DNA of 44,392 nt, the filler included, from an uncultured Methanosarcinales archaeon (GTDB lineage: Archaea; Nanobdellota; Nanobdellia; Woesearchaeales; JACPBV01), in assembly GCA_964492935.1 (NCBI GenBank). It is 12 parts of 12 records of this genome, joined end to end, with 100 filler letters (N's around TTAATTAATTAA, not from the genome) between each part and the next. Parts side by side here need not be neighbours in the genome. Positions count along the whole stretch, not along the records: positions 1 to 6,366 come from CAZBLF010000042.1; 11 more parts are not named here. One strand, 5' to 3'. The notes under the pieces were generated by a model. The model was not told where the DNA came from. It saw only the letters and a program-made list of their open reading frames with translations, and did not search any database. This document shows positions 1 to 44,392 of this stretch, piece after piece. Position numbers and translations under genes: made by a program. Positions within the stretch are counted from its first letter, which is position 1; every line of letters begins with the position of its first letter.

Positions 1-163
1 CGATGTTAAATACAATAAAATTTCCATTTCTTAGACGATAAAAACGGAGGAGTTCAGTGCTACGCACATATAGTCTCCTTCGGAGAAATTTATTTTTAAT
101 TGGGGGAGTTCTTAACTAATTTGGGAGTTCCTAAAATCTATGGAGGGGGCAAGAAACAATTAA

Positions 164-172
164 ATTTATTAA
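164..172 (+). promoter_or_regulatory. Archaeal TATA box for ORF 197-943
   Basis: TTTATTAAC about 25-33 nt upstream of ATG 197; no SD, so probably leaderless. Confidence 0.45.
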
Positions 173-196
173 CATTAGAAGAATATCTATTAAAAA

Positions 197-943
197 ATGG
201 TACTAAACTGGTTTTTCAAAGATGAATTTGAACAGTTTTATAGCCGAGTTGAGAGACTACAAAAATTTCTCAGAATCGTTGACAAAGAACTACTTATTGA
301 CCATTTTGTAGAATTACGCAGACACTTCAGACAAATAAAAAGAATCCTGCCAAAACTAAATCGTCTATACCAAGAAGAACTTAAAACTGTTGAACATATT
401 CCAGAATCGGGCTACAAAGAAAAACTCAAAAAATTCTCCGTTGATTTAGAGAAAGAACTGAGTGACTTAGAAAACTGGGTAAATAATGCGCTTGCTCTAG
501 TAGCGGAAATCCTCAAAATAAGAGTATTGACACAAGTACAAGAACAAAAGCAGAAACTTAAAACAATAATCAATCATATTACCAATATCTTAATCAAAGC
601 ACAACGAGATGCTTTTGAGTTAGTCAAATTAGAGATAGCTTGGAAAAAATCAATCAAGAAAGCACATAAAAAGCCAATCACAAAAATATCAGTCGTTGGA
701 AAACTCAATAACGGTTGGCGTTTGAGTGATATTCAAAGTGTCGTTATTGATCTGGGTGGAGTTGTTGAGCCAAATCCTGGAGGCACACATCCATACAAAA
801 TTGTATTTTCCGGACATCGTTCAATTCCTTTAGCAGAATCAACTCCGCCATTTATACTCGTGAGAGAAATCAGTTCAGCAACTGGAACGGATAATAAAAT
901 TCTGATAGTGAGTTTTTCTCAGGGAGAATTAGTCGCTGCTTAA
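197..943 (+). CDS. Hypothetical protein: N-terminal coiled coil plus C-terminal HicA-like domain
   Basis: 248-aa ORF; heptad-rich N-terminus; C-terminal GGVVEPNPGGTHPYKIVFSGHRSIPL resembles the HicA G-S/T-H beta-hairpin pattern (by eye). Confidence 0.6.
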   Translation: MVLNWFFKDEFEQFYSRVERLQKFLRIVDKELLIDHFVELRRHFRQIKRILPKLNRLYQEELKTVEHIPESGYKEKLKKFSVDLEKELSDLENWVNNALALVAEILKIRVLTQVQEQKQKLKTIINHITNILIKAQRDAFELVKLEIAWKKSIKKAHKKPITKISVVGKLNNGWRLSDIQSVVIDLGGVVEPNPGGTHPYKIVFSGHRSIPLAESTPPFILVREISSATGTDNKILIVSFSQGELVAA

Positions 944-1303
944 ATATTTGCTTCTGAAAGCCTCATATTCTCTCCTTTTCCTTGCTGATACAAATGGCAA
1001 TAACGGGCCCATATCCTGTAAATTGCCCGCTTCATCACATAAAAGATAAACCTTGTCTTCTCCAGCTTTCATTCTTTCTAAATCCTGAGCATAAGTGTCT
1101 TGGTTAAAAGTAATAAGAACTTCATTTCCTTGCCCAGCAATGGTTCGAAATGCTTCTTTAACAACTTCAACTTCCAGCTGAGAAAGCGAACTTAAATTAA
1201 CTTCAGAATCTCCTATTGCTGTCTGTAATTGACTTCTCAAATATCGTAAGCTTTGATGTTGTTCATTATAAAATTTTAGTTTATCTTTTGGAATTTCTTT
1301 CAT
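929..1303 (-). CDS. Hypothetical protein, convergent with and overlapping the 3' end of ORF 197-943
   Basis: 124-aa ORF; TTTTTAAATA TATA-like box on the minus strand at 1329-1338. Confidence 0.65.
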   Translation of the reverse strand: MKEIPKDKLKFYNEQHQSLRYLRSQLQTAIGDSEVNLSSLSQLEVEVVKEAFRTIAGQGNEVLITFNQDTYAQDLERMKAGEDKVYLLCDEAGNLQDMGPLLPFVSARKRREYEAFRSKYLSSD

Positions 1304-1669
1304 GTTATATTGAATAGAAAATCATACCTATTTAAAAAGCTTTGGTTCATTTACTACCAAACAATAGTATTTCTGTTTCTCGCCTCCCTTAAATTCATGT
1401 TCTCAAAGTATGCTGACGCTCAAAAGAAAGAACGGAACTCCCCTTAATGTACTAACTAAAAGAGCCTTCGGCTAGGATAAAACAAACTCCCCCCTGCTAC
1501 TTGTTCTTGATGTAACGCTTCGCTTTCTAGATAGAACTGAACTCCCCCGGTGCTTCGCACATATACACTCCCTGCGGTCGAATTAATGGGAAATGGAAAT
1601 TTTACTTCTTCGCTCCACTTCGTTCCGCTCGACCACGTTGCACTCTCCCTACGCTTCGCTTCGGTCGGG

Positions 1670-1752
1670 GTATTTAACAGCGATTATCCGGAAAATCCCT
1701 TGCAGGAATTTTCCCAAATTGGCTACGCCAACTTCGCATAGTTGCGATGTAA
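1670..1752 (+). other. attC-like recombination site with branched terminal structure
   Basis: R''-like ATTTAAC (1672-1678); GCGATTAT pairs with ATAGTTGC (two G:T); inner hairpins GGAAAATCCCT-TGC-AGGAATTTTCC (1690-1714) and TTGGC-TAC-GCCAA (1719-1731); ends GATG|TAA. Confidence 0.65.
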
Positions 1753-2289
1753 AGAGACCATCGAATCACCGTGTGCACCTAAGACCATGCCCGTAACCGA
1801 ACTAGGCGAAACCTTTAATTCAGCTGCAATGAAATTGCGTAAGCGAGCACTATCCAAAACACCAGCCATCCCCACAACCTTTTCCTTAGGCAAACCAGAC
1901 TTCTTCAAAAACAGGTACGTCATCACATCTAAGGGATTAGTAACAATAATACAGATAGCGGAAGGAGCATGTGACTTCACAGATGCTGCAATCGAAGACA
2001 TAATGGAACTATTCTTCGCAAGCAAATCCTCCCGAGACATACCAGGTTTTCTAGCAAGTCCAGCAGTAATCACGATGAGTTCGCATCCAGCAAGACTACT
2101 ATAATCAGTACTGCCCGTTATCGTAGTATCAAACGGAAAAAGAGGACTACAACACATCATATCCAATGCCTTACCCACAACAGCATCATCGATATCAATC
2201 ATCACGATTGAAGAAACAATATTCTTTGAAGCGAGAATAAAAGCCGCAGTAGCACCTACCTGCCCTGCACCAACGAAACCAACTTTCAT
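1750..2289 (-). pseudogene. mdh: Malate dehydrogenase (LDH-like MDH), 3'-truncated after about 180 aa
   Basis: GAGQVG Rossmann motif, GLARKPGMSREDLL, NPLD, GMAGVLDSAR, GAHGDSMV. Homology stops at Leu codon 1752-1750, immediately at the attC-like site; normal length is about 310 aa. Confidence 0.85.
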
Positions 2290-2355
2290 GATCGCAGGCA
2301 AGATACAAAATATTTAAATCTATGGATTTTTATATAAAATGAAGATCCTCAGTAC

Positions 2356-2619
2356 ATGTCTAAATGCCCTGAAGAAAAAATATATAGCTTATCAGAAGCA
2401 AGGAAGATTGCCAATATCTCAAAGAGACTTGCAGAAACCATAGATCATGTAGTGAGAAGGGGATATCCGCTGCATACTATACCCAGATTGCTGGACCAAA
2501 TGACCGAATACCCCGATGTCTTTAGACCACAAATCATACCGTATCTTCATAGATTACAAGAAAACGGTAGAAAAACGTATAACCTAGAAAACTTTCTAGG
2601 TAGCACGCACCTAGATTAA
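2356..2619 (+). CDS. Hypothetical protein
   Basis: 87-aa ORF with TTTATATAA box about 25 nt upstream; stop abuts the stop of the convergent gene. Confidence 0.55.
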   Translation: MSKCPEEKIYSLSEARKIANISKRLAETIDHVVRRGYPLHTIPRLLDQMTEYPDVFRPQIIPYLHRLQENGRKTYNLENFLGSTHLD

Positions 2620-2826
2620 CTACCAATCAAGTCCTTCTAAGTCTGCTACAACCGCATCCAAATCATCAGCAAGCTCTTCGGCTAAAACGGCATTTTCCTC
2701 AGTGTCAGAACCTACCTGATTAACAAGAGCATCGCCACTTCCACTATCTGTAGCAGGTTGAGTTTCTTCAGGAACTGCACATCCGACAATAAATAAAAGC
2801 ACCAATACTGCTAGGATTCTTTTCAT
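2620..2826 (-). CDS. Small acidic lipoprotein
   Basis: MKRILAVLVLLFIVGC lipobox-type signal; overlaps the stop of the upstream gene (ATGA). Confidence 0.7.
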   Translation of the reverse strand: MKRILAVLVLLFIVGCAVPEETQPATDSGSGDALVNQVGSDTEENAVLAEELADDLDAVVADLEGLDW

Positions 2827-4310
2827 TCTGCATCCTCCTCCGATTCTTCGGAATCTTCCTCTTCATCCTCAACCAGTTCCTCATCCTCAGCACCCTCTAA
2901 GGTAGCATCGTGCTCTCGCAACCCATGGGAAATCTCCACCAACACGGAATGCGCCTCCTTAAGCTCAGACTGTGACTGCTTGTGCAACTCCTTCGCTTTT
3001 CGAATCATCTCACTCAAAGCATCTCGTTCCTCTGCAGCTACAGTAGATCCCCGTTTCGAAGCAACTTCATCCAATAACGCAACCGATTGCTCATGCAATG
3101 ATTTAGCTTCGGCAACATGCCCACTAAACGTTTCAACTAAAGTATCCAAATCCTCGACCGTTACTTCGGATTCCTCAATCCGTGCAAGAACCTTCTCCAA
3201 TTTGACCTCAAGCTGACGAGCTCGTACAATCGTTGCTTTTGATTCTGCAACAACCACACGCGCCGCACCTGCCTTTGCAACATGCGAAATTCTTTTCCAC
3301 ACCGAAGCAATTTCTTTGGCAGCCGCTCGCAATTCTTCTTTCGTAGTAGCCGCATCTGCAAGCACTAGCGCCTTAGTAACAGACCCAGCCGCATCCGTAA
3401 GTTTTGCGACTAACTCAGCAGCACGCTCCTCTTCAATTAGGTCATTCTCCTCAATCTTGGAAAGGAGCTTCTCGATATGATTCAATATACGCTCACCAGA
3501 CTTTGCAACATGCTCCTTAGCCTTGGCTAGAATCTCCTCTTCAAGTGCATCACAATCCTCAGTACATTCAGCAAGTTTCTTCTTAACATCCTCAAACACC
3601 TTTCCACGATCCTCGCCCTCAGTTTTCAAAGACTCATACCTGACTTTAGCCTCCTCATAGCGTTTCCTAGCCTGTTCTAGTTTATCAGCCGCGACATCAC
3701 GTTTCTTGACCAGGTCGTCAGCTCTCATAATCTTCAAACGAGAAATCTTCTCCTTTACTGCAGCAGCATCCTCTGATGCAAGAATTCGCTTAGCGTGTCC
3801 ACGATCAAGCTGAGCTATCTTCCGAAGCTCATCGGTAGTAAACTCATCCTTTGTAAACGCAAATGCCCGACGAGCTCTTCCTGTATCAGAGATGTGCTCA
3901 TCATCCATACGAGGAGAACATTTCTTTCTACAATCTTCCTTTTCAACTCCACTCTCAACACATTTCTCTAAACAAGTATCAACTCTAGCTGCAATAGTAA
4001 CCGGAACCGGTCTAGCCTCTCGAGTAACATGCGTATCAATATCACATTTTTTAGCACAATCCTCTTTCCCAACACCAGAATCTAAACATCTATCCATACA
4101 ACTCCGTTCACTAATAAGAACAGGCTTAGGAACCGACCTTGCTTCACGTGTAACCTCATCAGAACCAGAATCATCCTTGACATCATCAGAACTAGTAGTT
4201 CCATCACCCTCCTTTGTAGCATCAGAATCTTTACTCTCATCAGCAACCACAAAAGAAACAGAAGAAACCACAAACAACATAACCATCAATAACACGAAAA
4301 CTTTTTTCAT
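2823..4310 (-). CDS. Secreted coiled-coil protein with two Cys-rich repeats
   Basis: Signal peptide; CxxxC-x9-CxxxC repeat twice, each preceded by VTREARxVP; long helical region; acidic tail; GAGGTGA SD; homologous start at 44240. Confidence 0.85.
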   Translation of the reverse strand: MKKVFVLLMVMLFVVSSVSFVVADESKDSDATKEGDGTTSSDDVKDDSGSDEVTREARSVPKPVLISERSCMDRCLDSGVGKEDCAKKCDIDTHVTREARPVPVTIAARVDTCLEKCVESGVEKEDCRKKCSPRMDDEHISDTGRARRAFAFTKDEFTTDELRKIAQLDRGHAKRILASEDAAAVKEKISRLKIMRADDLVKKRDVAADKLEQARKRYEEAKVRYESLKTEGEDRGKVFEDVKKKLAECTEDCDALEEEILAKAKEHVAKSGERILNHIEKLLSKIEENDLIEEERAAELVAKLTDAAGSVTKALVLADAATTKEELRAAAKEIASVWKRISHVAKAGAARVVVAESKATIVRARQLEVKLEKVLARIEESEVTVEDLDTLVETFSGHVAEAKSLHEQSVALLDEVASKRGSTVAAEERDALSEMIRKAKELHKQSQSELKEAHSVLVEISHGLREHDATLEGAEDEELVEDEEEDSEESEEDAE

Positions 4311-4383
4311 TCAAATCACCTCAAAGTTGATATCTAAGGTAACCAGTATTCTCTATTTAAAAACTTTTGTAACTTCTACCGAA

Positions 4384-4734
4384 TTAAAAGCTACCAAAAA
4401 GAGCTCGCAACCGAGTAACGATCTGTACAGGAGCATTCATAATAAGTTCTTCAGTAAACCGAATCACCCGAATCCCATCCCAACCACAACTAATATCCTT
4501 AAAATGATCCTTCCACGCATTCCGATGCCAATACCTTCCATCAGCTTCTAAAGCAATCTTTCGAGAAGGAAAATAAAAGTCAAAGATGCGAACAGAACCA
4601 TTACTCAACAGTTTCTTGTATTCACAATAAAAATCCTTACCCTCAACAAACCCCAACGAAAGCAAAAAAGACAACATCTTCCTTTCCAATAGAGTACGCT
4701 TCCCCAACCGAGAACTAAAACTACCGTATCTCAA
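4384..4734 (-). CDS. DUF559 / Vsr-like (very-short-patch-type) endonuclease
   Basis: DFYFPSRKIALEADGRYWH and GIRVIRF motifs; close homologue at 43834-44178. Confidence 0.8.
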   Translation of the reverse strand: MRYGSFSSRLGKRTLLERKMLSFLLSLGFVEGKDFYCEYKKLLSNGSVRIFDFYFPSRKIALEADGRYWHRNAWKDHFKDISCGWDGIRVIRFTEELIMNAPVQIVTRLRALFGSF

Positions 4735-4925
4735 CCTTTACTCCACCACCTACCTCATACGCAACACAACCTCTTCTATTAAACATTCATGAAACACCTC
4801 AATTTCCAAAAAAATGATGAAACCCATGCATAATCCCTTTCTCTCGGTGCGTTGCAGCCGCATCCACCAACGGAAACGAATATGAGAGCCTCACACAAGG
4901 AAAGTTAAAAATTGAGGTGAAAACC

Positions 4926-5153
4926 ATGAATAAAACAAAAATAGTGAATTTAGTCGAGAGAGATTTTACGACTCTCGCAAACCTTGAGCGCAGCATTCAG
5001 TTTGCGATCAACTCGAGGAAAGGTAGGCAATACCAATACAAGGTAATGCATGCTGCCTTTAAGCGCACGTGTGATATTCTTCTGAAGAGAAGAAAATACA
5101 TTGCGAAACAGCTCGGTCGCAGACTAGAGCTGATAAAAGACCCTTCAGAGTAA
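4926..5153 (+). CDS. Small basic hypothetical protein (75 aa)
   Basis: GAGGTGA SD at 4914-4920 before ATG 4926; K/R-rich; convergent with the recombinase. Confidence 0.6.
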   Translation: MNKTKIVNLVERDFTTLANLERSIQFAINSRKGRQYQYKVMHAAFKRTCDILLKRRKYIAKQLGRRLELIKDPSE

Positions 5154-5165
5154 GGGTCTTTTTTA
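5133..5165. terminator. Bidirectional hairpin between convergent genes
   Basis: AAAAGACCCTT-CAGAGT-AAGGGTCTTTT with A/T tracts on both sides. Confidence 0.6.
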
Positions 5166-6041
5166 TTCCCCCAGCAGAGCAGGAATACCTTTCGTATGAA
5201 AATCATGCGGCAACCGAGCATAATCCAAAGTCGTCTTGCGATCAGCATGCCCCATCAATTTCTGGATAGTATCGACATCAACACCTTTCTGCATGAGATG
5301 CGTAACACAACTTGCACGCATCATATGAGGATACACGTGCATATGAATACCGGCTTTCTTAGCTGCAGTATCAACAAGTGCTTGCGCAGTTCTTCTTGTA
5401 AGGTGTCCACCAAAGCTGTTCTCAAACAAATAGACAGATGAGCGTTTTCGGGAAGCCAAATAAGACCTCATATCCGAATACAATCGAGCAGGCAGCGGCA
5501 CATACCTATCTTTATTCCCCTTTCCACGATAAATAAACAACAATCGAGCAACATCATGGATATGACCTACCTTAATCTTAACACATTCACCAACCCGAAT
5601 CCCCGTTTCATACAACAATCGAATCAACAATCGATGTTTCTCCGATCGAGTACGATTAATCATCATCCGAATCTCCTCAGTGGCCAACACCCGAGGCAAA
5701 CTCCTAGGAATCTTCGCCCTCTTAACACCAACAAACAATTTCTTCCCCATGAAACCGCTAAAATAAGATTTCAATGCACTCACTGCAAGATTAACAGTAC
5801 GCTCCTTTTTGTGCCGATCCAATAGATGAAGAAGATACCTCCTAATATCCGCAGAAGTAACAAATTTAGGCTGCTTCTTTACAAAATCCATAAATTTACC
5901 CACAGTCCAAAGATAAGAATCAATAGTATTTCTACTAAACCCCTGTAAACGCAAGTCATCCACAAAACCCGCAAACCTCTCCTTCAACCTATCCTTTTGT
6001 CTAATTCCCTTTTCTCGTTTTACCTGATGAAATGTGTTCAT
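5163..6041 (-). CDS. Tyrosine recombinase, XerA/XerD-like (292 aa), copy 1
   Basis: N-terminal SAM-like domain (LRLQGFSRNTIDSY); catalytic R (GIRVGE), K (GKGNK), HxxR (HMMR), GH and Y (TTLDY). Start moved to ATG 6041 using the GAGGTGA SD and conservation with copy 2. No IntI-type insertion. Confidence 0.92.
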   Translation of the reverse strand: MNTFHQVKREKGIRQKDRLKERFAGFVDDLRLQGFSRNTIDSYLWTVGKFMDFVKKQPKFVTSADIRRYLLHLLDRHKKERTVNLAVSALKSYFSGFMGKKLFVGVKRAKIPRSLPRVLATEEIRMMINRTRSEKHRLLIRLLYETGIRVGECVKIKVGHIHDVARLLFIYRGKGNKDRYVPLPARLYSDMRSYLASRKRSSVYLFENSFGGHLTRRTAQALVDTAAKKAGIHMHVYPHMMRASCVTHLMQKGVDVDTIQKLMGHADRKTTLDYARLPHDFHTKGIPALLGE

Positions 6042-6077
6042 TCCAATCACCTCATACATATATGACGAAGAACTCAG

Positions 6078-6116
6078 CTTATATACCCTGCGCCCGCATC
6101 TGGCAAGTGGCAAGTG
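6078..6116 (-). promoter_or_regulatory. Recombinase promoter: TATA box plus tandem CACTTGCCACTTGCCA motif
   Basis: GGGTATATAAG and CACTTGCCACTTGCCA are conserved in copy 2 (42902-42912 and 42874-42889). Confidence 0.55.
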
Positions 6117-6134
6117 CAACATGATTTTGCCGCC

Positions 6135-6238
6135 TTAACACCTTTCAAGCAAGAATTTAGCCGTCTCAGACTGGACACTGCCAAATGGCAAGTGCCCCTG
6201 AAACACCAAAACAGCGCTTAAAAGATGTTAAATACAAT
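6135..6238 (+). other. Recombinase-proximal foldable attachment site (attI-equivalent), copy 1
   Basis: TTAACACCTTTCAAGC (6135-6150) pairs 14/16 with GCTTAAAAGATGTTAA (6216-6231); central hairpin GGACACTGCCA-AA-TGGCAAGTGCCC; GTTAAAT at 6227-6233. Confidence 0.65.
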
Positions 6239-6312
6239 TTTTGAAAATGCCTAAGAATAGAAAGGGGGCTAGACTTTCCACAATTTATATAAAACCTAAA
6301 GTTTTGAATATT

Positions 6313-6349
6313 AATGAAGCTCCCAGCCGCCCCAAGGGGCGGGGTATCT
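6313..6349. mobile_element. GC-rich hairpin resembling an IS200/IS605-family or palindromic-element end, at a contig break
   Basis: AATGAAGCTCCCAG-CCGCCCC-AA-GGGGCGG-GGTATC; the contig ends 17 nt later. Confidence 0.35.
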
Positions 6350-6366
6350 AGTTAAAGCTTGCAAGC

Positions 6367-6466
6367 NNNNNNNNNNNNNNNNNNNNNNNNNNNNNNNNNN
6401 NNNNNNNNNNTTAATTAATTAANNNNNNNNNNNNNNNNNNNNNNNNNNNNNNNNNNNNNNNNNNNN
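6367..6466. other. Artificial contig linker (first of 11)
   Basis: N-run/TTAATTAATTAA/N-run; also at 12825, 19278, 25018, 29718, 32305, 34814, 36943, 38977, 40817 and 42612. Confidence 0.99.
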
Positions 6467-8352
6467 TTTTCGATGTTTACATCTTTTAGAAATGCTTTGT
6501 TTGATCTGCCTATGTAGCTGAAATTAAAGTAGAAGTATAGGTTTTCATCTCCTGAGCGTAGACGTTCTACGCTGAGGAAGGTAGGAGATTGGTATTGTGG
6601 AAGGGGCTTAGCAATGAATGAGAAGTTTCCGGAGAAGCAGGTTTCAATGGGGATTCTTAATTGTTCTGCAGATCTTCTGCCGGCTAAGTCTTGAGATACA
6701 AATAAGAGATTTGAAGTGACTGCGTTTTTAAGTCCTGCAGCATTTACCTGTGATGATTGGGGTTCGGACGTTGATTGTTGGCGTATTCTAAATGCTCCTT
6801 GGAAGATGTTTGTAATATCTACATCTTCGAACTCGAAAAGGCCATCTGCATCGGCAATCGTTTCCTCATCCGCATGCGTTGCGCATTTTTCTACTCCTAG
6901 CACGGCGAAATCGCATTTTGCTCTTAAGTCTGAGTCGCCTAATGTTTCTAGTCTTGAGGATAGGCCAGCAATTTCGAAGGTTCGGTCGAATACGTCGTTG
7001 AAAGGTGTTCGTTGGACGTACAGAAAGACTTTTGCTCCGGGTTCGGTCTTTCCGCGAATGGTTACGGCATCGGCAAAGTTTTCAAAGATTTGCTGGCCGC
7101 TTCGTGGAGAGATGATTTCTATTTCGGGTGGTGTGGTGTCGAGTAAAATTTCAAATTGTTCGCTGATTGCGTTACCACCGGGGTCGGTGGCGGTAACACG
7201 CAGCGTGTAAAATTGTTCTTCCTCTCCTAGTTGTACGGGAACGTCGAATTCTCCATTGACGACTACTGATGTGGAAATGGTTCCTACTCCGTCGAGGAAA
7301 TTAATGGATTCTGCTTCAGGGAAGTCTTTTTTGCCGGCAGGTAGGGTGGTTGCTGATAATGCTGCTGAGGAGGAGCCGATATTACCTTTATCGTCTACGG
7401 CGAAAATAGTATATGTGTAGGTGCGCTCTGAATTAACGCCGATGTCTTTGAAGGTGGTTACTTGATCATCGTCAAAGAAGATGAAGGGTTGGCCATCTCG
7501 TGAAAGGACATATCGATTGAAATCTTCATCTGTTGATTGGTTCCACGTTAGTTCGATAACATTTGCTTCGATGTCTGTGATGTTAAAGGCTACTACGGGA
7601 GCAGGAGGAACGTCATCTTCCTCTGTTTCCTCTACGGTGATTTCTAGGGTTACGGGTTCGGAAACCACTCCAATGACATGATACTCTTGTTCTGGAGCAA
7701 AGAGCGGGATGTCGGTGAGATTGAGCTCGGGAGGGATGGTGTCTACGGCGATTGAGAAGATTTTTTCGGTCTGTCTATTGTCTTTTCTTGCAATAATCTT
7801 TATGGAGTGATTTCCATCTGCTAATTCTACGTTCGAGAAGGCGAATTCTCCTTGCTGACCAGATATTCTCTCTTCTTTGAGGAAATTGTCTACTAAGAGT
7901 TGTAATTCGGTTAGTGGTGAGGTGGTACCGGGAATACTTATTGTGTTGCCTTGGTTGAAGGTAGTGGGCACGGTAGCGTTGAGGATGAATGCAGGTTGGG
8001 CGAGCGTGGTGAAGGTGAATGATGCGCCCCCATTGTTGTCTTCTACGGTTTGAGTAAGATTATTAGATGCTACCTTAAAGAGATAGGTTGTGGCTGGATC
8101 TAGGTTGTTGAGGGTGATTTCTTTATTGTTATCGAAATTGAGGGCTTGGGTTTGTGTTTGGTCTAATGCTGAAGTTCCAAAGGTTACGGTGGCGTCTGCG
8201 GACTGATCTACGATCCAGGTGATGGTTGCGGATGTGTCAGAGACTTGTGCTGCCTGGACTGAGTTTATTGACAATGCATCTACGAATGCAATGGGCATTA
8301 GGATAATTAGTTCGATGAGCAGGATTGCTAGGATTGATGTGGTTTTGTTCAT
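6467..8352 (-). CDS. Large secreted protein with fibronectin-III/Ig-like domains (3' partial)
   Basis: Signal peptide; FN3 motifs (SATITW...LDPATTYLFKV; ELTW...YTYTIFAVD); DTTPPEIEIISP Ig-like linkers. Confidence 0.85.
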
Positions 8353-23764: not shown

Positions 23765-24060
23765 GGCCTGAAGGGATTCCCACCTAAGGGTTTCACCCTA
23801 TAGGTACCCGTGCACTAGATGTAGCATTTCGCTTTGCTCAACGCTACTAGGACAATTGAGAAGAGAAAAATGGGCCTGAAGGGATTCCCACCTAAGGGTT
23901 TCACCCTATAGGTACCCGTGCANNNNNNNNNNNNNNNNNNNNNNNNNNNNNNNNNNNNNNNNNNNNNNNNNNNNNNNNNNNNNNNNNNNNNNNNNNNNNN
24001 NNNNNNNNNNNNNNNNNNNNNNTTTGCTCAACGCTACTAGGACAATTGAGAAGAGAAAAA
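23765..24060. repeat. 108-bp tandem repeat containing 17 nt of the tRNA-Arg 3' end and hairpins (gap-interrupted)
   Basis: GGCCTGAAGGGATTC at 23765, 23873 and in the tRNA; unit tail repeated at 24023-24060. Confidence 0.7.
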
Positions 24061-24155
24061 TGGGCCTGAAGGGATTCGAACCCTCGGTCTACAGCTTAGA
24101 AGGCTCTGGCGGAACATAATGTTCTGTCGCCCTATCCAGGCTAGGCTACAGGCCC
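24061..24155 (-). tRNA. tRNA-Arg(TCT) with a 20-nt intron at a non-canonical position (24106-24125)
   Basis: GGGCCTG/CAGGCCC acceptor stem; TTCGAAT T-loop; ACAGC-CTTCTAA-GCTGT anticodon arm after removing AGAACATTATGTTCCGCCAG. Confidence 0.9.
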
Positions 24156-24236
24156 ATGATGTTGAAAGTCGTGAGTGTTTATATAAATCTTTTCTCAATG
24201 GAAACGGTTATAAAGAGAGTTGTGACTTTCTAGGTT

Positions 24237-42379: not shown

Positions 42380-42751
42380 GTTACTTCTCAGAACTCTCTT
42401 CTTCTCCGAAATCTTCGGAGTCGTCAGGGTGTGCTTCAGGTTTTGGTGTTTCTTTCTTTACTTCTTCCTTTTCTTCCACTACCTTTTCCTTTGGCTCTAC
42501 TTTTCTTGCTTTTGCTAATTTCTTTCCCTTTGTTTTCTTCTCTTCTTCGAGGTGGATTGCTTCTTTTTCTAAAAGAAGAATGAGATTTAGACTAGTGAAA
42601 ATTTAATTGCGNNNNNNNNNNNNNNNNNNNNNNNNNNNNNNNNNNNNNNNNNNNNTTAATTAATTAANNNNNNNNNNNNNNNNNNNNNNNNNNNNNNNNN
42701 NNNNNNNNNNNTTTAGCAGACTAGATATATGTTAATTTGGGCTCTAAAAAA

Positions 42752-42855
42752 ATTGGATTTAACATCTTTTAAGCGAATTTCTTTCAGATGTAGGGCACTT
42801 GCCATTTGGCAGTGTCCAGTCTGAAACTCTTGAATTCTTGCTTTAGAGATGTTAT
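42752..42855 (-). other. Recombinase-proximal foldable attachment site, copy 2
   Basis: TAACATCTTTTAAGC pairs 13/15 with GCTTTAGAGATGTTA (42840-42854); inner GAATT/AATTC and TTTCAGA/TCTGAAA; central hairpin identical to copy 1. Confidence 0.65.
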
Positions 42856-42948
42856 GAGGGGGAAATTGGGTTTCACTTGCCACTTGCCAGGTGGGGGCGC
42901 AGGGTATATAAGGTGAGTTCTTCGCTTTAGTTGTATGAGGTGATTGGG

Positions 42949-43827
42949 ATGAACGTATTTCATCAGGTAAAACGAGAAAAAGGGATTAGACAGAAGGATA
43001 GATTGAAGGAGAGGTTTGCTGGATTTGTGGATGACTTACGATTACAGGGATTTAGTCGGAATACTATTGATTCTTATCTTTGGACGGTTGGGAAATTTAT
43101 GGATACTGTTTCGAAGCCGGCGAAGTTTGTTACTTCCTCAGATATTAAGAAGTATTTGTTGGTGTTGCTTGATCGGAAGAAGGCGGAACGTACGGTTAAT
43201 TTGGCACTTAGTGCGTTGAAGGCTTATTTTGGTGGATTTATGGGGAAGAACTTGTTCAGGAGTATTAAGCGGGCTAAGATTCCTCAGAGTTTACCTCGTG
43301 TGTTGGCAACTGAGGAGATTCAGATGATGATTAATCGTACTCGATCGGAGAAGCATAGGTTGATGATTCGATTGTTGTATGAAACGGGGATTCGTGTGGG
43401 TGAATGTGTAGTGGTGAAGGTTGATCACATCCATGAGGTGGCTAAACTGTTGTTTATTCAGCGAGGTAAAGGGAAAAAGGATCGGTATGTACCGTTGCCG
43501 GATGGATTGTATTCGGATATGATGTCGTATCTGGCTTCCCGAAAACGTTCATCGGTCTATTTGTTTGAAAATAGTTTTGGTGGACATCTTACTCGAAGAA
43601 CGGCGCAAGCTGTTGTAGATGTTGCTGCGAAAAAGGCAGGGATTCACATGCACGTTCATCCGCACATGATGCGAGCTAGTTGTGTTACTCATCTTATGCA
43701 GAAAGGTGTTGAAATTGAGAAAATTCAGAAGTTGATGGGGCATGCAGATCGGAAAACGACTTTGGGTTATGCGCGATTGCCGCATGATTTTCACACTCGA
43801 GGTATTCCTGGACTGTTGGAAGAGTAG
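42949..43827 (+). CDS. Tyrosine recombinase, XerA/XerD-like (292 aa), copy 2
   Basis: Colinear close homologue of 5163-6041; all catalytic residues intact. Confidence 0.92.
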   Translation: MNVFHQVKREKGIRQKDRLKERFAGFVDDLRLQGFSRNTIDSYLWTVGKFMDTVSKPAKFVTSSDIKKYLLVLLDRKKAERTVNLALSALKAYFGGFMGKNLFRSIKRAKIPQSLPRVLATEEIQMMINRTRSEKHRLMIRLLYETGIRVGECVVVKVDHIHEVAKLLFIQRGKGKKDRYVPLPDGLYSDMMSYLASRKRSSVYLFENSFGGHLTRRTAQAVVDVAAKKAGIHMHVHPHMMRASCVTHLMQKGVEIEKIQKLMGHADRKTTLGYARLPHDFHTRGIPGLLEE

Positions 43828-43833
43828 ATTGCG

Positions 43834-44178
43834 TTGAGGTATAGTGGTTTTAGTTCTCGGTTAGGGAAGCGGACTATTTTGGAGAGGAGGATGCTTTCTT
43901 TTTTGCTTTCGTTGGGGTTTGTTGAAGGTACTGATTTTCATTGTGAGTACAAGCAGGTGTTGAGTAACGGTTCTGTTAGGATATTCGACTTTTATTTTCC
44001 TTCTCGGAAGATTGCTTTGGAAGCTGATGGTGCGTATTGGCATCGGAATGCGTGGAGGGATCATTTTAAGGATATTTCTTGTGGTTGGGATGGGATTCGG
44101 GTGATTCGGTTTACTGAAGAACATATTATGAATGCTCCTCTGCAGATTAAGACTCGGTTGCGGGCTTTATTCCTTTGA
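43834..44178 (+). CDS. DUF559 / Vsr-like endonuclease, copy 2
   Basis: DFYFPSRKIALEADGAYWH; starts 6 nt after the recombinase stop. Confidence 0.8.
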   Translation: MRYSGFSSRLGKRTILERRMLSFLLSLGFVEGTDFHCEYKQVLSNGSVRIFDFYFPSRKIALEADGAYWHRNAWRDHFKDISCGWDGIRVIRFTEEHIMNAPLQIKTRLRALFL

Positions 44179-44239
44179 ATCGAAGGATTTATATATTCCT
44201 AGTCTCAGTATGCAAGTATATCAAATTGAGGTGATTGTT

Positions 44240-44392
44240 ATGAAGAAAGTTTTCGTTGTATTGATGGTTATATTGGTTGCTGCGTTCTCAGCTTTTTTGG
44301 TGATTGCAGAATCGGATAGCTCAAATGAGACTCGGGATAGTACGAGTGATGTTGAGGATAAGGAGGATGCTACAGATGAAGTTTCTGAAGAA
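44240..44392 (+). CDS. Secreted protein, homologue of 2823-4310 (3' partial)
   Basis: MKKVFVVLMVILVAAFSAFLVIAESDSS... after a GAGGTGA SD. Confidence 0.75.
   Translation, partial: MKKVFVVLMVILVAAFSAFLVIAESDSSNETRDSTSDVEDKEDATDEVSEE

Follow-up and report, generated by a model that had tools for sequence, protein, structure and literature searches.

Candidate cassette-docking sites beside XerA paralogues in a Woesearchaeota-like archaeon and its relatives

Several described systems join or exchange DNA segments at Xer sites. IMEX are phages or islands that lodge at the single chromosomal dif and are handled by housekeeping XerCD, and CTX phage is a prime case: its single-stranded attP is formed by the folding of two inverted dif-like sites. 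The pdif modules of Acinetobacter plasmids are bounded by XerC/XerD sites of alternating orientation and have no dedicated recombinase. In Thermococcales, dif is a site found once in each chromosome and lies away from xerA (Cortez et al. 2010, PMC2958812). Archaeal integrons with a true IntI, and CALINs, are already in print (Ghaly et al. 2022, PMC9668308). We found no description in print of the system reported here as such, though the Nanoarchaeota CALINs of PMC9668308 may be the same elements. We think it probable, though well short of certain, that a site beside XerA paralogues is a docking point for mobile cassettes, placing this system between integrons and Xer-exploiting elements.

The window, that is, the whole stretch of 44,392 nucleotides that we analysed, derives from a marine DPANN (Woesearchaeota-like) MAG of 57 contigs and 1.15 Mb, referred to as G000 and 85% complete. 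An earlier sequence-only reading had treated it as one molecule, which is incorrect: it consists of small contigs strung together by N...TTAATTAATTAA...N linkers. Positions 1-6366 are the entire contig C42, the sole duplicated contig of the assembly, and 42712-44392 are the separate contig C57 (1681 nt), recognised by its exact length and the position of its motif. C57 joins contig C38 via a 32-nt end overlap; the assembly also shows contig end overlaps of 55 nt. The co-occurrence of C42 and C38/C57 holds at the level of the MAG rather than of the cell.

The recombinase and its dif-like site

The features on which the argument turns are as follows.

1-16, plus strand: site A at the start of C42, with one base (c), GATG and right arm TTAAATACAAT; the left arm is absent from the contig
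5163-6041, minus strand: intact XerA-type tyrosine recombinase, copy 1 (292 aa; PF00589 at 1e-36)
6078-6197, no strand assigned: upstream module with a TATA box and repeated GGCAAGTG boxes
6211-6238, plus strand: site B, 28-bp dif-like core with left arm ACAGCGCTTAA, centre AAGATG and right arm TTAAATACAAT
6239-6366, plus strand: first stretch of DNA attached at site B; its terminal 55-mer (6312-6366) starts at a branch point of other assemblies
42752-42779, minus strand: site C on C57, with right arm TTAAATCCAAT, centre AAGATG and left arm AATTCGCTTAA
42949-43827, plus strand: XerA-type recombinase copy 2 on C57 (292 aa; 86% identical to copy 1)
downstream of copy 2: DUF559-like gene, then the beginning of a secreted protein

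Copy 1 probably starts at MNTFHQ, with GAGGTGA before the start, although the longer ORF reaches 6122. As had been claimed, the gene is intact and is transcribed away from GATGTTAAAT at 6224-6233, and 19 residues do separate DRYVPLP from YLF. Judged by model scores, the enzyme is XerA-like and lacks the IntI-specific insertion, in agreement with the earlier view of it: it reaches 214 bits with the XerA model NF040815 (cut-off 220) and 146 bits with the IntI model, the latter split over two stretches and under the IntI cut-off, and its best relative of solved structure is XerA 4a8e. A second copy of the locus does lie at 42712-44392, but its earlier framing has to change, since it occupies a separate contig that ends 40 nt past site C, and the in-window comparison beyond the site spans those 40 nt only. 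The recombinase regions of C42 and C57 are 82% identical. Because no XerA gene beyond these two was found in the 85%-complete G000, they may also serve as the housekeeping enzyme. Upstream modules of the 6078-6197 type are also found before LAGLIDADG endonuclease genes elsewhere in G000.

GATG|TTAAAT forms the right half of a dif-like site of 28 bp, laid out as 11-6-11. Site B scores 30.8 bits and site C 34.4 bits with a weight matrix for which no match in a shuffled genome reached 16 bits, and a single unitig of another study passes directly through site B. The consensus from 27 sites consists of ACTTCGTTTAA, TAGATG and TTAAATTCAAT; by a count made by eye, 7 of the 11 positions in its left arm agree with the reverse-complemented right arm, and strong sites still score 11-18 bits on the reverse strand. 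With up to two mismatches allowed, a 15-mer retrieves the three sites of the window (two without a mismatch, one with a single mismatch) plus four places with 2 mismatches elsewhere in the 1.15-Mb assembly; the 10-mer with one mismatch is, by itself, not significant (11 matches versus 5.3 expected). A 22-mer pattern with at most one mismatch occurs at 38 places in 21 of 41 relatives (reversed control, 6 places), and exact matches at 24 places in 20 of the 301 genomes of the order (control, 2). Genomes carry 2-5 sites each, some at ordinary gene ends without a nearby recombinase.

The recombinase genes of C42 and C57 each have their own core site about 170 nt upstream, with the left arm on the gene side. 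Among 32 related recombinase loci, 14 have a site of at least 20 bits within 900 nt upstream; all 14 are divergent, and the same orientation is seen in 0 of the 32. The site-linked enzymes form three well-supported clades of XerA paralogues, which branch off a backbone of XerA genes that have short branches and no site next to them, and shuffles clustered the site label equally tightly in 0 to 1 of 500 trials. These sequence comparisons support the site as a conserved partner of the recombinase lineage. Counts across relatives overstate independence because the relatives are kin, and some data come from unpublished genomes: the site pair, private repeat and cargo of G005, the tree position of G013 and one exact match in G256.

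Breakpoints and cassettes

Homology between orthologous and paralogous loci ends at the site. C42 and C57 share the island CGCTTAAAAGATGTTAAAT[A/C]CAATTTTT, on both flanks of which they differ. Contig G001:C6, which runs collinearly with C38+C57 over more than 8 kb, equals C57 exactly over 35 nt up to GATGTT and then diverges, which upholds the expectation that DNA past the site varies among orthologous loci; its 5.3 kb beyond GATGTT have no counterpart in G000. Site pairs within each of G010, G005 and G009 have a common left half and differ past GTGTTA or GATGTTA. Assemblies break at the same place. Among 27 occurrences with known contig extent, 9 have a contig end at most 130 nt away on the right-arm side, where simple arithmetic predicts about 0.4, and terminal 55-mers of contigs start at GATG or no more than 3 nt from it. 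The last 55 bases of C57 start exactly at GATG, the first base of C42 lies 1 nt before GATG, and C1 terminates 58 nt past a junction-type GATG site. Leftward from position 2, two contigs extend site A in each of two other assemblies, and in both assemblies the two differ from each other. We saw no recombination product directly; in public contigs the sides of the joints are only 21-26 nt long.

The separate 1.75-kb unit that the sequence-only reading described, with matched ends and a hairpin, is present at the start of C42. It opens with GATGTTAAATACAAT at position 2, the second base of the contig, and its cargo segment spans 197-1303.

17-196, plus strand: left non-coding end with TAAAATTTCCATTTC, three GGRGAGTTC repeats and two small hairpins
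197-943, plus strand: cargo ORF, 248 aa
929-1303, minus strand: cargo ORF, 124 aa
1380-1720, plus strand: right non-coding end with three inverted GAACTCCCC repeats, a GTGCTTCGCAC hairpin, an inverted TAAAATTTCCATTTC copy and an CGTTGCACT module
1669-1677: right-end element GTATTTAAC, with a hairpin at about 1690-1714

Its composition and recurrence suggest that this 1.7-kb unit behaves like a cassette. Five other genera also carry its non-coding ends; identity is 85% between positions 1-97 and G010:C11, and 88% between positions 5-55 and G034:C37. Where the left-end hairpin stems depart from those of G010, the changes are paired. Set against its G002 version, the right end stops short after CCCAAATT, and the orientation of the right-end site is ambiguous because sites are nearly palindromic. 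The two-gene cargo recurs in metagenome contigs at 79-86% DNA identity with other ends and neighbours, in one contig amid MazG and Fic/DOC genes. Across four metagenomes from four studies, the end modules reach about 5-15 times the depth of the cargo (left end 5-7 times, right end up to 16 times). Neither cargo ORF matched a Pfam or NCBIfam family, and the loci fetched from relatives contained no relatives of the cargo.

Related genomes do hold further units in which conserved ends enclose differing cargo. G000 yielded no further complete unit; it holds one cassette and no array. G002:C335 carries two units in tandem. On a 1-Mb contig of G111, an island of two or three site-bounded segments is flanked by housekeeping genes; here a 5.85-kb segment with the recombinase is bracketed by two full sites whose left flanks have about 115 nt in common, and two segments carry metabolic genes, in one case a leuBCD-like row. 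In several segments there are two or more genes, distributed over both strands. Cargo of accessory type among the relatives includes GNAT, nucleotidyltransferase, Fic/DOC and MazG genes. The insertions observed on long contigs were short, and in several relatives housekeeping genes resume within a few kb of the site. Between the end module of C1 and the end of a G010 cassette, 46 of 48 positions agree. In five cassettes the right arm matches the cassette's own right-end element at 9/9, 9/9, 9/9, 7/9 and 7/9 positions, versus only 7, 7 and 5 for the next cassette's arm; of 13 cassettes, only 6 have private inverted repeats past the right arm that outscore the shuffles. At the G002 inter-cassette junction, the predicted single-stranded fold reaches -37.6 kcal/mol (z = -6.7; 0 of 200 shuffles as good), with a closing stem made of two inverted site halves and a 2-nt bulge. 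A recognisable left arm is often absent from inter-cassette junction sites, so a simple two-arm double-stranded reaction may fail there.

A proposed mechanism and its rivals

The remainder of C42 contains the following.

1723-2301, minus strand: truncated malate/lactate dehydrogenase gene, whose homology to the intact 310-aa C38 copy ends at about residue 186
2356-5162, no strand assigned: segment paralogous to C38+C57, including a small ORF and a lipoprotein-like ORF
2823-4310, minus strand: secreted coiled-coil protein
4384-4734, minus strand: DUF559/Vsr-like gene
within 2356-5162: insert of about 430 nt with a 78-aa ORF, absent from C57

In the core, the 11-bp left arm lies on the gene side, the 6-bp centre ends in GATG, and the right arm, also 11 bp, starts with TTAAAT. 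We propose that strand exchange at or beside the GATG|TTA border, where the recombinase itself presumably does the cutting, attaches mobile segments of 1-6 kb on the right-arm side. Such segments begin with a right arm and finish in a hairpin-rich non-coding module, whose '...TAAC' element is an inverted match to the segment's own right arm; the ends are common to several genera and the cargo is variable. Within the window, 1 to about 1720 would be one cassette, its far end probably lost by a deletion that also took half of an mdh gene, 1723-6238 an old paralogue of the chromosomal mdh...xerA locus together with its site, and 6239-6366 the first bases of the next joined segment. We lean toward a double-stranded rather than a folded single-stranded cassette partner because complete cores exist; what points to the use of folded single-stranded DNA is one strong fold together with the matched cassette ends.

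That fold and those ends also speak for a strict integron analogue, in which a recombinase at the edge of an array would capture promoterless cassettes at folded, single-stranded attC-like sites (R''/R' pairing) and resolve them by one strand exchange. G|TTAAAT of the right arm agrees with the integron core G|TTRRRY, as does ATTTAAC with RYYYAAC, cassette ends match their own right arm at 9/9 in three of five cases, small hairpin stems are preserved through paired changes, and some junction sites have no left arm. The same features would equally suit cruciforms, protein binding or RNA, and complete double-stranded 11-6-11 cores stand at the platform and at some cassette borders. Of the integron-like layout claimed earlier, the divergent gene and site hold, but in two genomes (G000, on C42, and G111) the recombinase gene lies between two directly oriented sites, within a site-bounded segment. 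Several segments are multi-gene on both strands, two in G111 are metabolic, the insertions observed were short, and there is one such fold only. We regard this analogy as possible but on balance unlikely. The findings that the sequence-only reading had named as fatal to it (an absence of other cassette-like units, invariant DNA past the site, recombination at a double-stranded dif alone, a protein grouping within canonical IntI) were not made; its gene-capture interpretation as a whole is partly supported, given a single cassette in the window, short insertions and a complete double-stranded Xer-type core.

Those bracketing sites would instead suit a known kind of element, with C42 being, or lying within, a self-mobile integrative element with its own integrase, sites A and B as attL/attR, and the other cassettes as IMEX-like elements accumulated at one dif. 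In its favour, A and B repeat each other in direct orientation at a distance of 6.2 kb, the recombinase gene lies beside B, the 5.85-kb G111 segment is likewise bracketed by two full sites, cassettes have no recombinase of their own, and G000 yielded no second XerA gene. Yet the mdh...xerA order is chromosomal and conserved in C38+C57 and G001:C6, genomes have 2-5 sites, some without a recombinase nearby, and the site-linked enzymes are separate paralogue clades in genomes that also have a XerA without an adjacent site. We know of no IMEX counterpart to conserved, matched ends that span genera, and we consider this explanation rather improbable.

An ordinary XerA/dif dimer-resolution locus, with the remainder due to contig chaining, strain mixtures and chance repeats, is very hard to uphold. 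The enzyme is near the XerA cut-off (214 versus 220 bits), the site has dif architecture and the window is an artificial contig chain; but G000 has two recombinase-plus-site copies and relatives have up to 5 sites, duplication affects C42 alone among the contigs, and the pile-up of contig ends, exact 55-mer boundaries and conserved cassette ends are unexpected for a lone dif. Least credible of all is an archaeal promoter that drives a small structured RNA family, with coincidental breakpoints: TTTAATAG is TATA-box-like and the end modules are hairpin-rich, including UUCG-type loops, but neither the window nor nine related loci gave an Rfam match, the strong GATGTTA conservation and dyad symmetry are unlike a promoter, and the breaks in homology and assembly fall inside the site.

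Comparison with described systems

Docking of cassettes at a XerA-paralogue site, the reading we favour, would share much with integrons: a recombinase gene that faces away from the docking site, a G|TT crossover followed by purines, structure-rich unit ends with complementary halves, conserved ends around variable cargo, and accessory-type cargo such as the GNAT, nucleotidyltransferase, Fic/DOC and MazG genes of relatives. It differs in an enzyme that lacks the IntI insertion and scores under the IntI cut-off, in a docking site that is a full 11-6-11 Xer core, in short insertions and several multi-gene, two-stranded segments (two of them metabolic in G111), and in a recombinase gene that can sit within a site-bounded segment, unlike intI at the array end.

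Archaeal XerA/dif supplies the closest enzyme family, matched over its full length (solved structures 4a8e and 5hxy), and the two inverted 11-bp arms around a 6-bp spacer; the right arm resembles the XerD arm of bacterial dif. Here, in contrast, the site lies directly beside the gene, with 2-5 sites in each genome; the enzymes linked to it form paralogue clades of their own, and DNA varies on one side of the site. As with IMEX, elements without their own recombinase join at a Xer site, and the G002 junction, like CTX phage, has inverted site halves that would fold on each other; here, however, the elements are small cassettes with a cross-genus end architecture, tied to dedicated XerA paralogues. 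Like pdif modules, these are discrete gene modules bounded by Xer-type sites in differing surroundings. To our knowledge, no hairpin-rich matched ends have been reported for pdif modules, which are bacterial and plasmid-borne, whereas the modules described here are archaeal and tied to a dedicated recombinase.

A XerA-type recombinase at two paralogous loci

The window links small contigs of a 1.15-Mb, 57-contig MAG by N...TTAATTAATTAA...N and is not a single molecule. Its relevant features are as follows.

1 to 6366: contig C42, entire
1 to 16: site A, the right arm at the start of C42
1 to about 1720: the unit, a candidate cassette with non-coding ends and two-ORF cargo
5163 to 6041, minus strand: recombinase gene, copy 1, with the ribosome-binding site GAGGTGA ahead of MNTFHQ, directed away from GATGTTAAAT at 6224
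6211 to 6238: site B, on C42
42712 to 44392: taken as contig C57, having its exact length of 1681 nt and its motif position
42752 to 42779: site C, on C57

The end of contig C38 continues into C57 through a 32-nt overlap, and the joined locus carries, in order, an intact mdh gene (310 aa), a small ORF, a gene for a secreted coiled-coil protein, a DUF559/Vsr-like gene, the recombinase gene and the site. C42 is a diverged paralogue of this locus (the recombinases are 82% identical, the rest 65-77%), with homology in mdh ending at about residue 186. This pair is the only between-contig duplication in the assembly, which argues against general strain contamination; a circular C42 was rejected because its two ends do not overlap. 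C42 is nearly complete in public marine and hydrothermal metagenomes (at least half of the sampled words in 13 runs), and all or part of it was found in 20 rows from 17 studies. Between its DUF559-like and recombinase genes, C42 carries some 430 nt of inserted DNA (4735-5162), including a 78-aa ORF (4917-5153), where the gap in C57 is only 6 nt. At the contig end, the final 20 bases (6346-6366) are unlike the contigs from the four public runs, all of which go on with another 14 nt from 6346, reflecting either an alternative junction or an assembly-end error.

In Pfam, the recombinase matches Phage_integrase and the SAM-like N-terminal domain. Their top NCBIfam model is archaeal XerA (NF040815), at 214.2 and 202.8 bits, slightly under the 220-bit cut-off. 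The IntI model TIGR02249 gives 145.8 and 140 bits against a cut-off of 265, each in two stretches, with the matches breaking apart at positions 180 and 237, and the IntI model NF011946 gives 77-83 bits, also under its cut-off; no hit above the IntI cut-off was found in 41 related genomes. Only 19 residues separate DRYVPLP from YLF, the IntI-specific extra domain around patch III is absent, and the alignment to VchIntIA/IntI4 (2a3v) ends at residue 212. Among solved structures, XerA of P. abyssi (4a8e, 2e-41, full length) and the XerA entry 5hxy come closest. The sequence-only reading of this DNA, which had described a XerA-type enzyme free of the IntI insertion and transcribed away from GATGTTAAAT, is upheld by the residue spacing, the model scores, the full-length match to 4a8e and the gene's orientation.

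Beyond the two copies, no other tyrosine recombinase gene was found in this 85%-complete genome, and the copies may also act as the host's housekeeping Xer. In a tree of 32 enzymes, the members linked to a site form three well-supported clades, one of which holds the enzyme studied here. Since these clades arise from a backbone of short-branched XerA genes without an adjacent site, the site-linked enzymes look like specialised paralogues; the placement of one of the enzymes, that of G013, relies on an unpublished genome.

Upstream of both recombinase copies lies a module of about 120 nt (6078-6197 and 42795-42912) with a TATA box, CACTTGCCACTTGCCAGGTG, TGTCCAGTCTG and an extra GGCAAGTG box. 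The same module is present on contigs C3, C6, C8, C9, C11, C16, C27 and C36 of this genome, and six of seven other genes downstream of it encode free-standing LAGLIDADG endonucleases (PF14528). A shared operator is one possible explanation, and a mobile promoter that serves DNA-cutting genes is another.

The core site and the breaks beside it

The consensus of 27 sites from this genome and its relatives reads ACTTCGTTTAA for the left arm, TAGATG for the centre and TTAAATTCAAT for the right arm. This 11-6-11 layout has the Xer/dif-type architecture, in which a 6-bp spacer separates two inverted arms of 11 bp each; the arms are complementary at 7 of 11 positions when counted by eye, and in strong sites the reverse strand also scores 11-18 bits. 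The GATG/TTAAAT motif first picked out from the sequence alone corresponds to the border between centre and right arm. Of 41 relatives, 21 contain a 22-letter pattern with at most one mismatch, at 38 places in all, where a reversed control gives 6. Exact matches number 24 and come from 20 of 301 genomes in the order (control: 2); one of them, in G256, is from an unpublished genome. Fourteen of 32 recombinase loci have a site of at least 20 bits in the 900 nt upstream of the gene, and all of these are divergent, none co-oriented. Rather than a single dif per chromosome, we find two gene-plus-site copies here and up to five sites per related genome. A whole-genome search with a 15-mer, at two mismatches or fewer, returned the three places in the window and four others with two mismatches.

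Contig C3 carries a degenerate site of 20.3 bits (52502-52527) some 100 nt downstream from a tRNA gene, behind what seem to be repeats of that tRNA's tail; a docking site that has decayed would be one explanation. In three sites from three genera (the end of contig C1 of this genome, G003:C17 and G111:C1 at about 124.9 kb), ATTACTC(A/G)G directly follows the right arm. We rejected the idea that this motif marks a conserved chromosomal dif, as the flanks lack homology at the protein level and the flanking genes are unrelated; it may represent an extended arm or an accessory binding element.

Comparison of loci places a break in similarity at the site. The sequence-only reading had proposed a second copy of the locus that aligns up to about 15 nt past the GTT of the site and is unrelated beyond. 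The copy itself stands, since C57 has the same arrangement, sharing the island CGCTTAAAAGATGTTAAAT[A/C]CAATTTTT between flanks that are unlike on either side; for the second half of the proposal, the window offers no more than the 40 nt of C57 past its site. In a genome of the same genus, contig G001:C6 (locus L034) is collinear with C38 and C57 over a stretch exceeding 8 kb and identical to C57 along the 35 nt that end at GATGTT; past this point the right half of the site is degenerate and the next 5.3 kb have no counterpart in our genome. The orthologous recombinase gene of this sister species (6316-7191) has an in-frame TAG stop, and gene and site together look like a decaying platform. Within each of G010, G005 and G009, pairs of sites have the left half in common and diverge after GTGTTA or GATGTTA (the G005 site pair, like the private repeat and cargo of that genome, comes from an unpublished genome).

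Contigs also often end near the site. Among 27 occurrences on contigs of known size, nine lie within 130 nt of a contig end on the right-arm side, where an arithmetic estimate would expect about 0.4. Of the 24 exact matches in the order, six are no more than 136 nt from a contig start, with the right arm outward in all six. In this assembly, with its 55-nt end overlaps, the final 55 bases of C57 start exactly at GATG, the first base of C42 is the one before GATG, and the largest contig, C1, stops 58 nt past a junction-type GATG; in other MAGs the site occupies contig positions 41-62 or 43-64. From these coordinates rather than from reads, we infer that such ends are branching nodes of the assembly graph, which would mean that in the sample a single right-hand sequence has several left-hand partners, or a single left-hand sequence several right-hand ones. 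In two of four metagenome runs, position 2 is extended to the left by two contigs that differ from each other. Joints in public contigs at 31>1582, 76>1665 and 33>6313 were not counted as junction evidence, their sides of 21-26 nt being too short. Ribosomal RNA and tRNA genes were rejected as the cause of the contig ends past the site, as nine related loci gave no Rfam family; the window contains a single tRNA, an unrelated one. ARAGORN calls a 97-nt tRNA with anticodon TTA ('tRNA-Stop') at 24060-24156 on the minus strand (49.6 bits with the Rfam tRNA model), adjoining N runs within a scaffolded contig; it is probably a misread intron-bearing tRNA, the alternative being a UAA-reading tRNA.

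Putative cassettes: ends, cargo and site-bounded segments

The unit was recognised from its two ends, both of which we recovered: it starts one base inside C42 with GATGTTAAATACAAT, and GTATTTAAC at 1669-1677 is followed by a hairpin. These ends are patchy inverted repeats of each other, with TAAAATTTCCATTTC, GGRGGAGTTCAGT and three GGGGAGTTC-type repeats per side, and they recur in other genera. Positions 1-97 are found at 85% in G010, positions 5-55 at 88% in G034, where they adjoin a recombinase gene at a contig start, and pieces of 1431-1720 in G002, G003, G005 and G010. Neither of the unit's ORFs was found in the relatives' loci that share its ends. On G002:C335 there are two tandem units, the first of which closes with the same GTATTTAAC and hairpin, followed by about 110 nt of hairpins and then the next site, whereas the C42 unit stops after CCCAAATT, directly at the mdh remnant. 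The final 58 nt of C1 are likewise a cassette right-end module, which agrees with the end of a G010 cassette in 46 of 48 positions, and modules of this type also occur in G019, G036, G009 and G001:C6, in the last case 4.7 kb past the degenerate site.

Depth over the body of C42 is 13-19, 6-7, about 8 and about 5 in four metagenomes, each from a different study, against 95-213, 47-129, 22-80 and 24-32 in bins over the unit ends and the DNA past site B. Because depth was summed over all contigs at least 90% alike, these values indicate that the end modules are multi-copy in the community and do not give a per-cell copy number.

Within cassettes, the right arm matches the '...TAAC' element of the cassette's own right end at 9/9, 9/9, 9/9, 7/9 and 7/9 positions in five cases, against only 7, 7 and 5 positions for the arm of the next cassette; the perfect matches are not all independent, because two of them share one end family. 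Private inverted repeats were not significant in 7 of 13 cassettes.

The 248-aa and 124-aa cargo ORFs matched no family in Pfam or NCBIfam, relaxed thresholds included, and our impression is of a HicA-like C-terminus. The two-gene cargo recurs in metagenome contigs at 79-86% DNA identity, in one of them with other ends, among MazG and Fic/DOC genes and between two junction-type sites.

Past the sites of other relatives we found many ORFs without a Pfam family and some accessory-type genes. The insertions are short, several have more than one gene and genes on both strands, and in several relatives housekeeping genes follow a few kb past the site. One fully assembled case comes from G111. Within a contig of 1.0 Mb, Cbf5/UbiA on one side and the genes for ribosomal proteins L31e/S19e on the other enclose an island of about 12.8 kb, in which all sites are co-oriented and the order is:

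possible junction
leuBCD-like row
full site S1
sugar-metabolism genes and recombinase gene
full site S2
two hypothetical genes
junction J2, bearing the canonical right-end module

S1 and S2 have about 115 nt of left flank in common, and an element GGCAAATGRCAAGTG occurs on the flanks of both. Lying between them, the recombinase segment is itself site-bounded, as is the stretch of C42 from site A to site B. A recombinase inside a site-bounded segment departs from the integron layout and would allow the segment to be read as a self-mobile element.

A candidate mechanism and its relation to known systems

We propose that the XerA paralogue would bind its 28-bp core site and exchange strands at or beside the GATG/TTA border, the partner site being carried by a circular cassette, which would thereby be inserted or excised, and that the mirrored cassette ends would rebuild a site-like palindrome on the circle. 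The partner could be double-stranded, as the complete cores favour, or a folded single strand, as favoured by junctions without a left arm, the matched ends (three of five cassettes), the paired changes seen in small hairpins and the one strong fold, that of the inter-cassette junction in G002, which folds as a single strand at z = -6.7. ATTTAAC and GTTAAAT fit the integron motifs RYYYAAC and GTTRRRY.

It is tempting to hypothesize, although we hold this to be somewhat doubtful, that in Woesearchaeota-like DPANN archaea paralogues of the housekeeping XerA serve as dedicated cassette recombinases, and that gene capture arose there independently of integrons, through cassettes whose matched fold-back ends present the crossover point; this might also explain archaeal 'attC clusters without an integrase'. 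If true, gene-cassette capture would not be peculiar to IntI, and an ordinary Xer enzyme, without the domain thought to be needed to read attC, would have been recruited in tiny-genome archaea that rely on acquired genes. It would also provide a minimal tyrosine recombinase (292 aa) with a 28-bp site for study and possibly as a tool, explain recurrent assembly breaks in DPANN MAGs, and make the archaeal attC clusters reported without an integrase worth re-examining.

Searches of full texts on XerA/dif, archaeal integrons, DPANN gene cassettes and integron-like Xer systems yielded no description of XerA-run cassettes, and the part of Smyshlyaev et al. 2021 that classes XerA with the Xer enzymes does not mention such a system. 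In Xer/dif dimer resolution, one dif lies at the replication terminus, in contrast to the two gene-plus-site copies found here. In an integron, intI adjoins an array of single-gene cassettes that share one orientation and are mostly promoterless, whereas the window contains a single unit whose two ORFs are opposed; an integron integrase reaches the cut-off score and carries the extra patch III domain, neither of which applies to our enzyme, and for attC sites Rfam gave no match. As described in the relevant part of Ghaly et al. 2022 (PMC9668308), archaeal integrons have a true IntI, with six IntI genes in 75 genomes, and most of the elements are attC clusters without an integrase, in taxa that include Nanoarchaeota. 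Finally, an IMEX lacks a recombinase, sits at a host Xer site and is bounded by copies of that site; the unit described here carries no recombinase and begins with the right arm of a site, and its far border is truncated.
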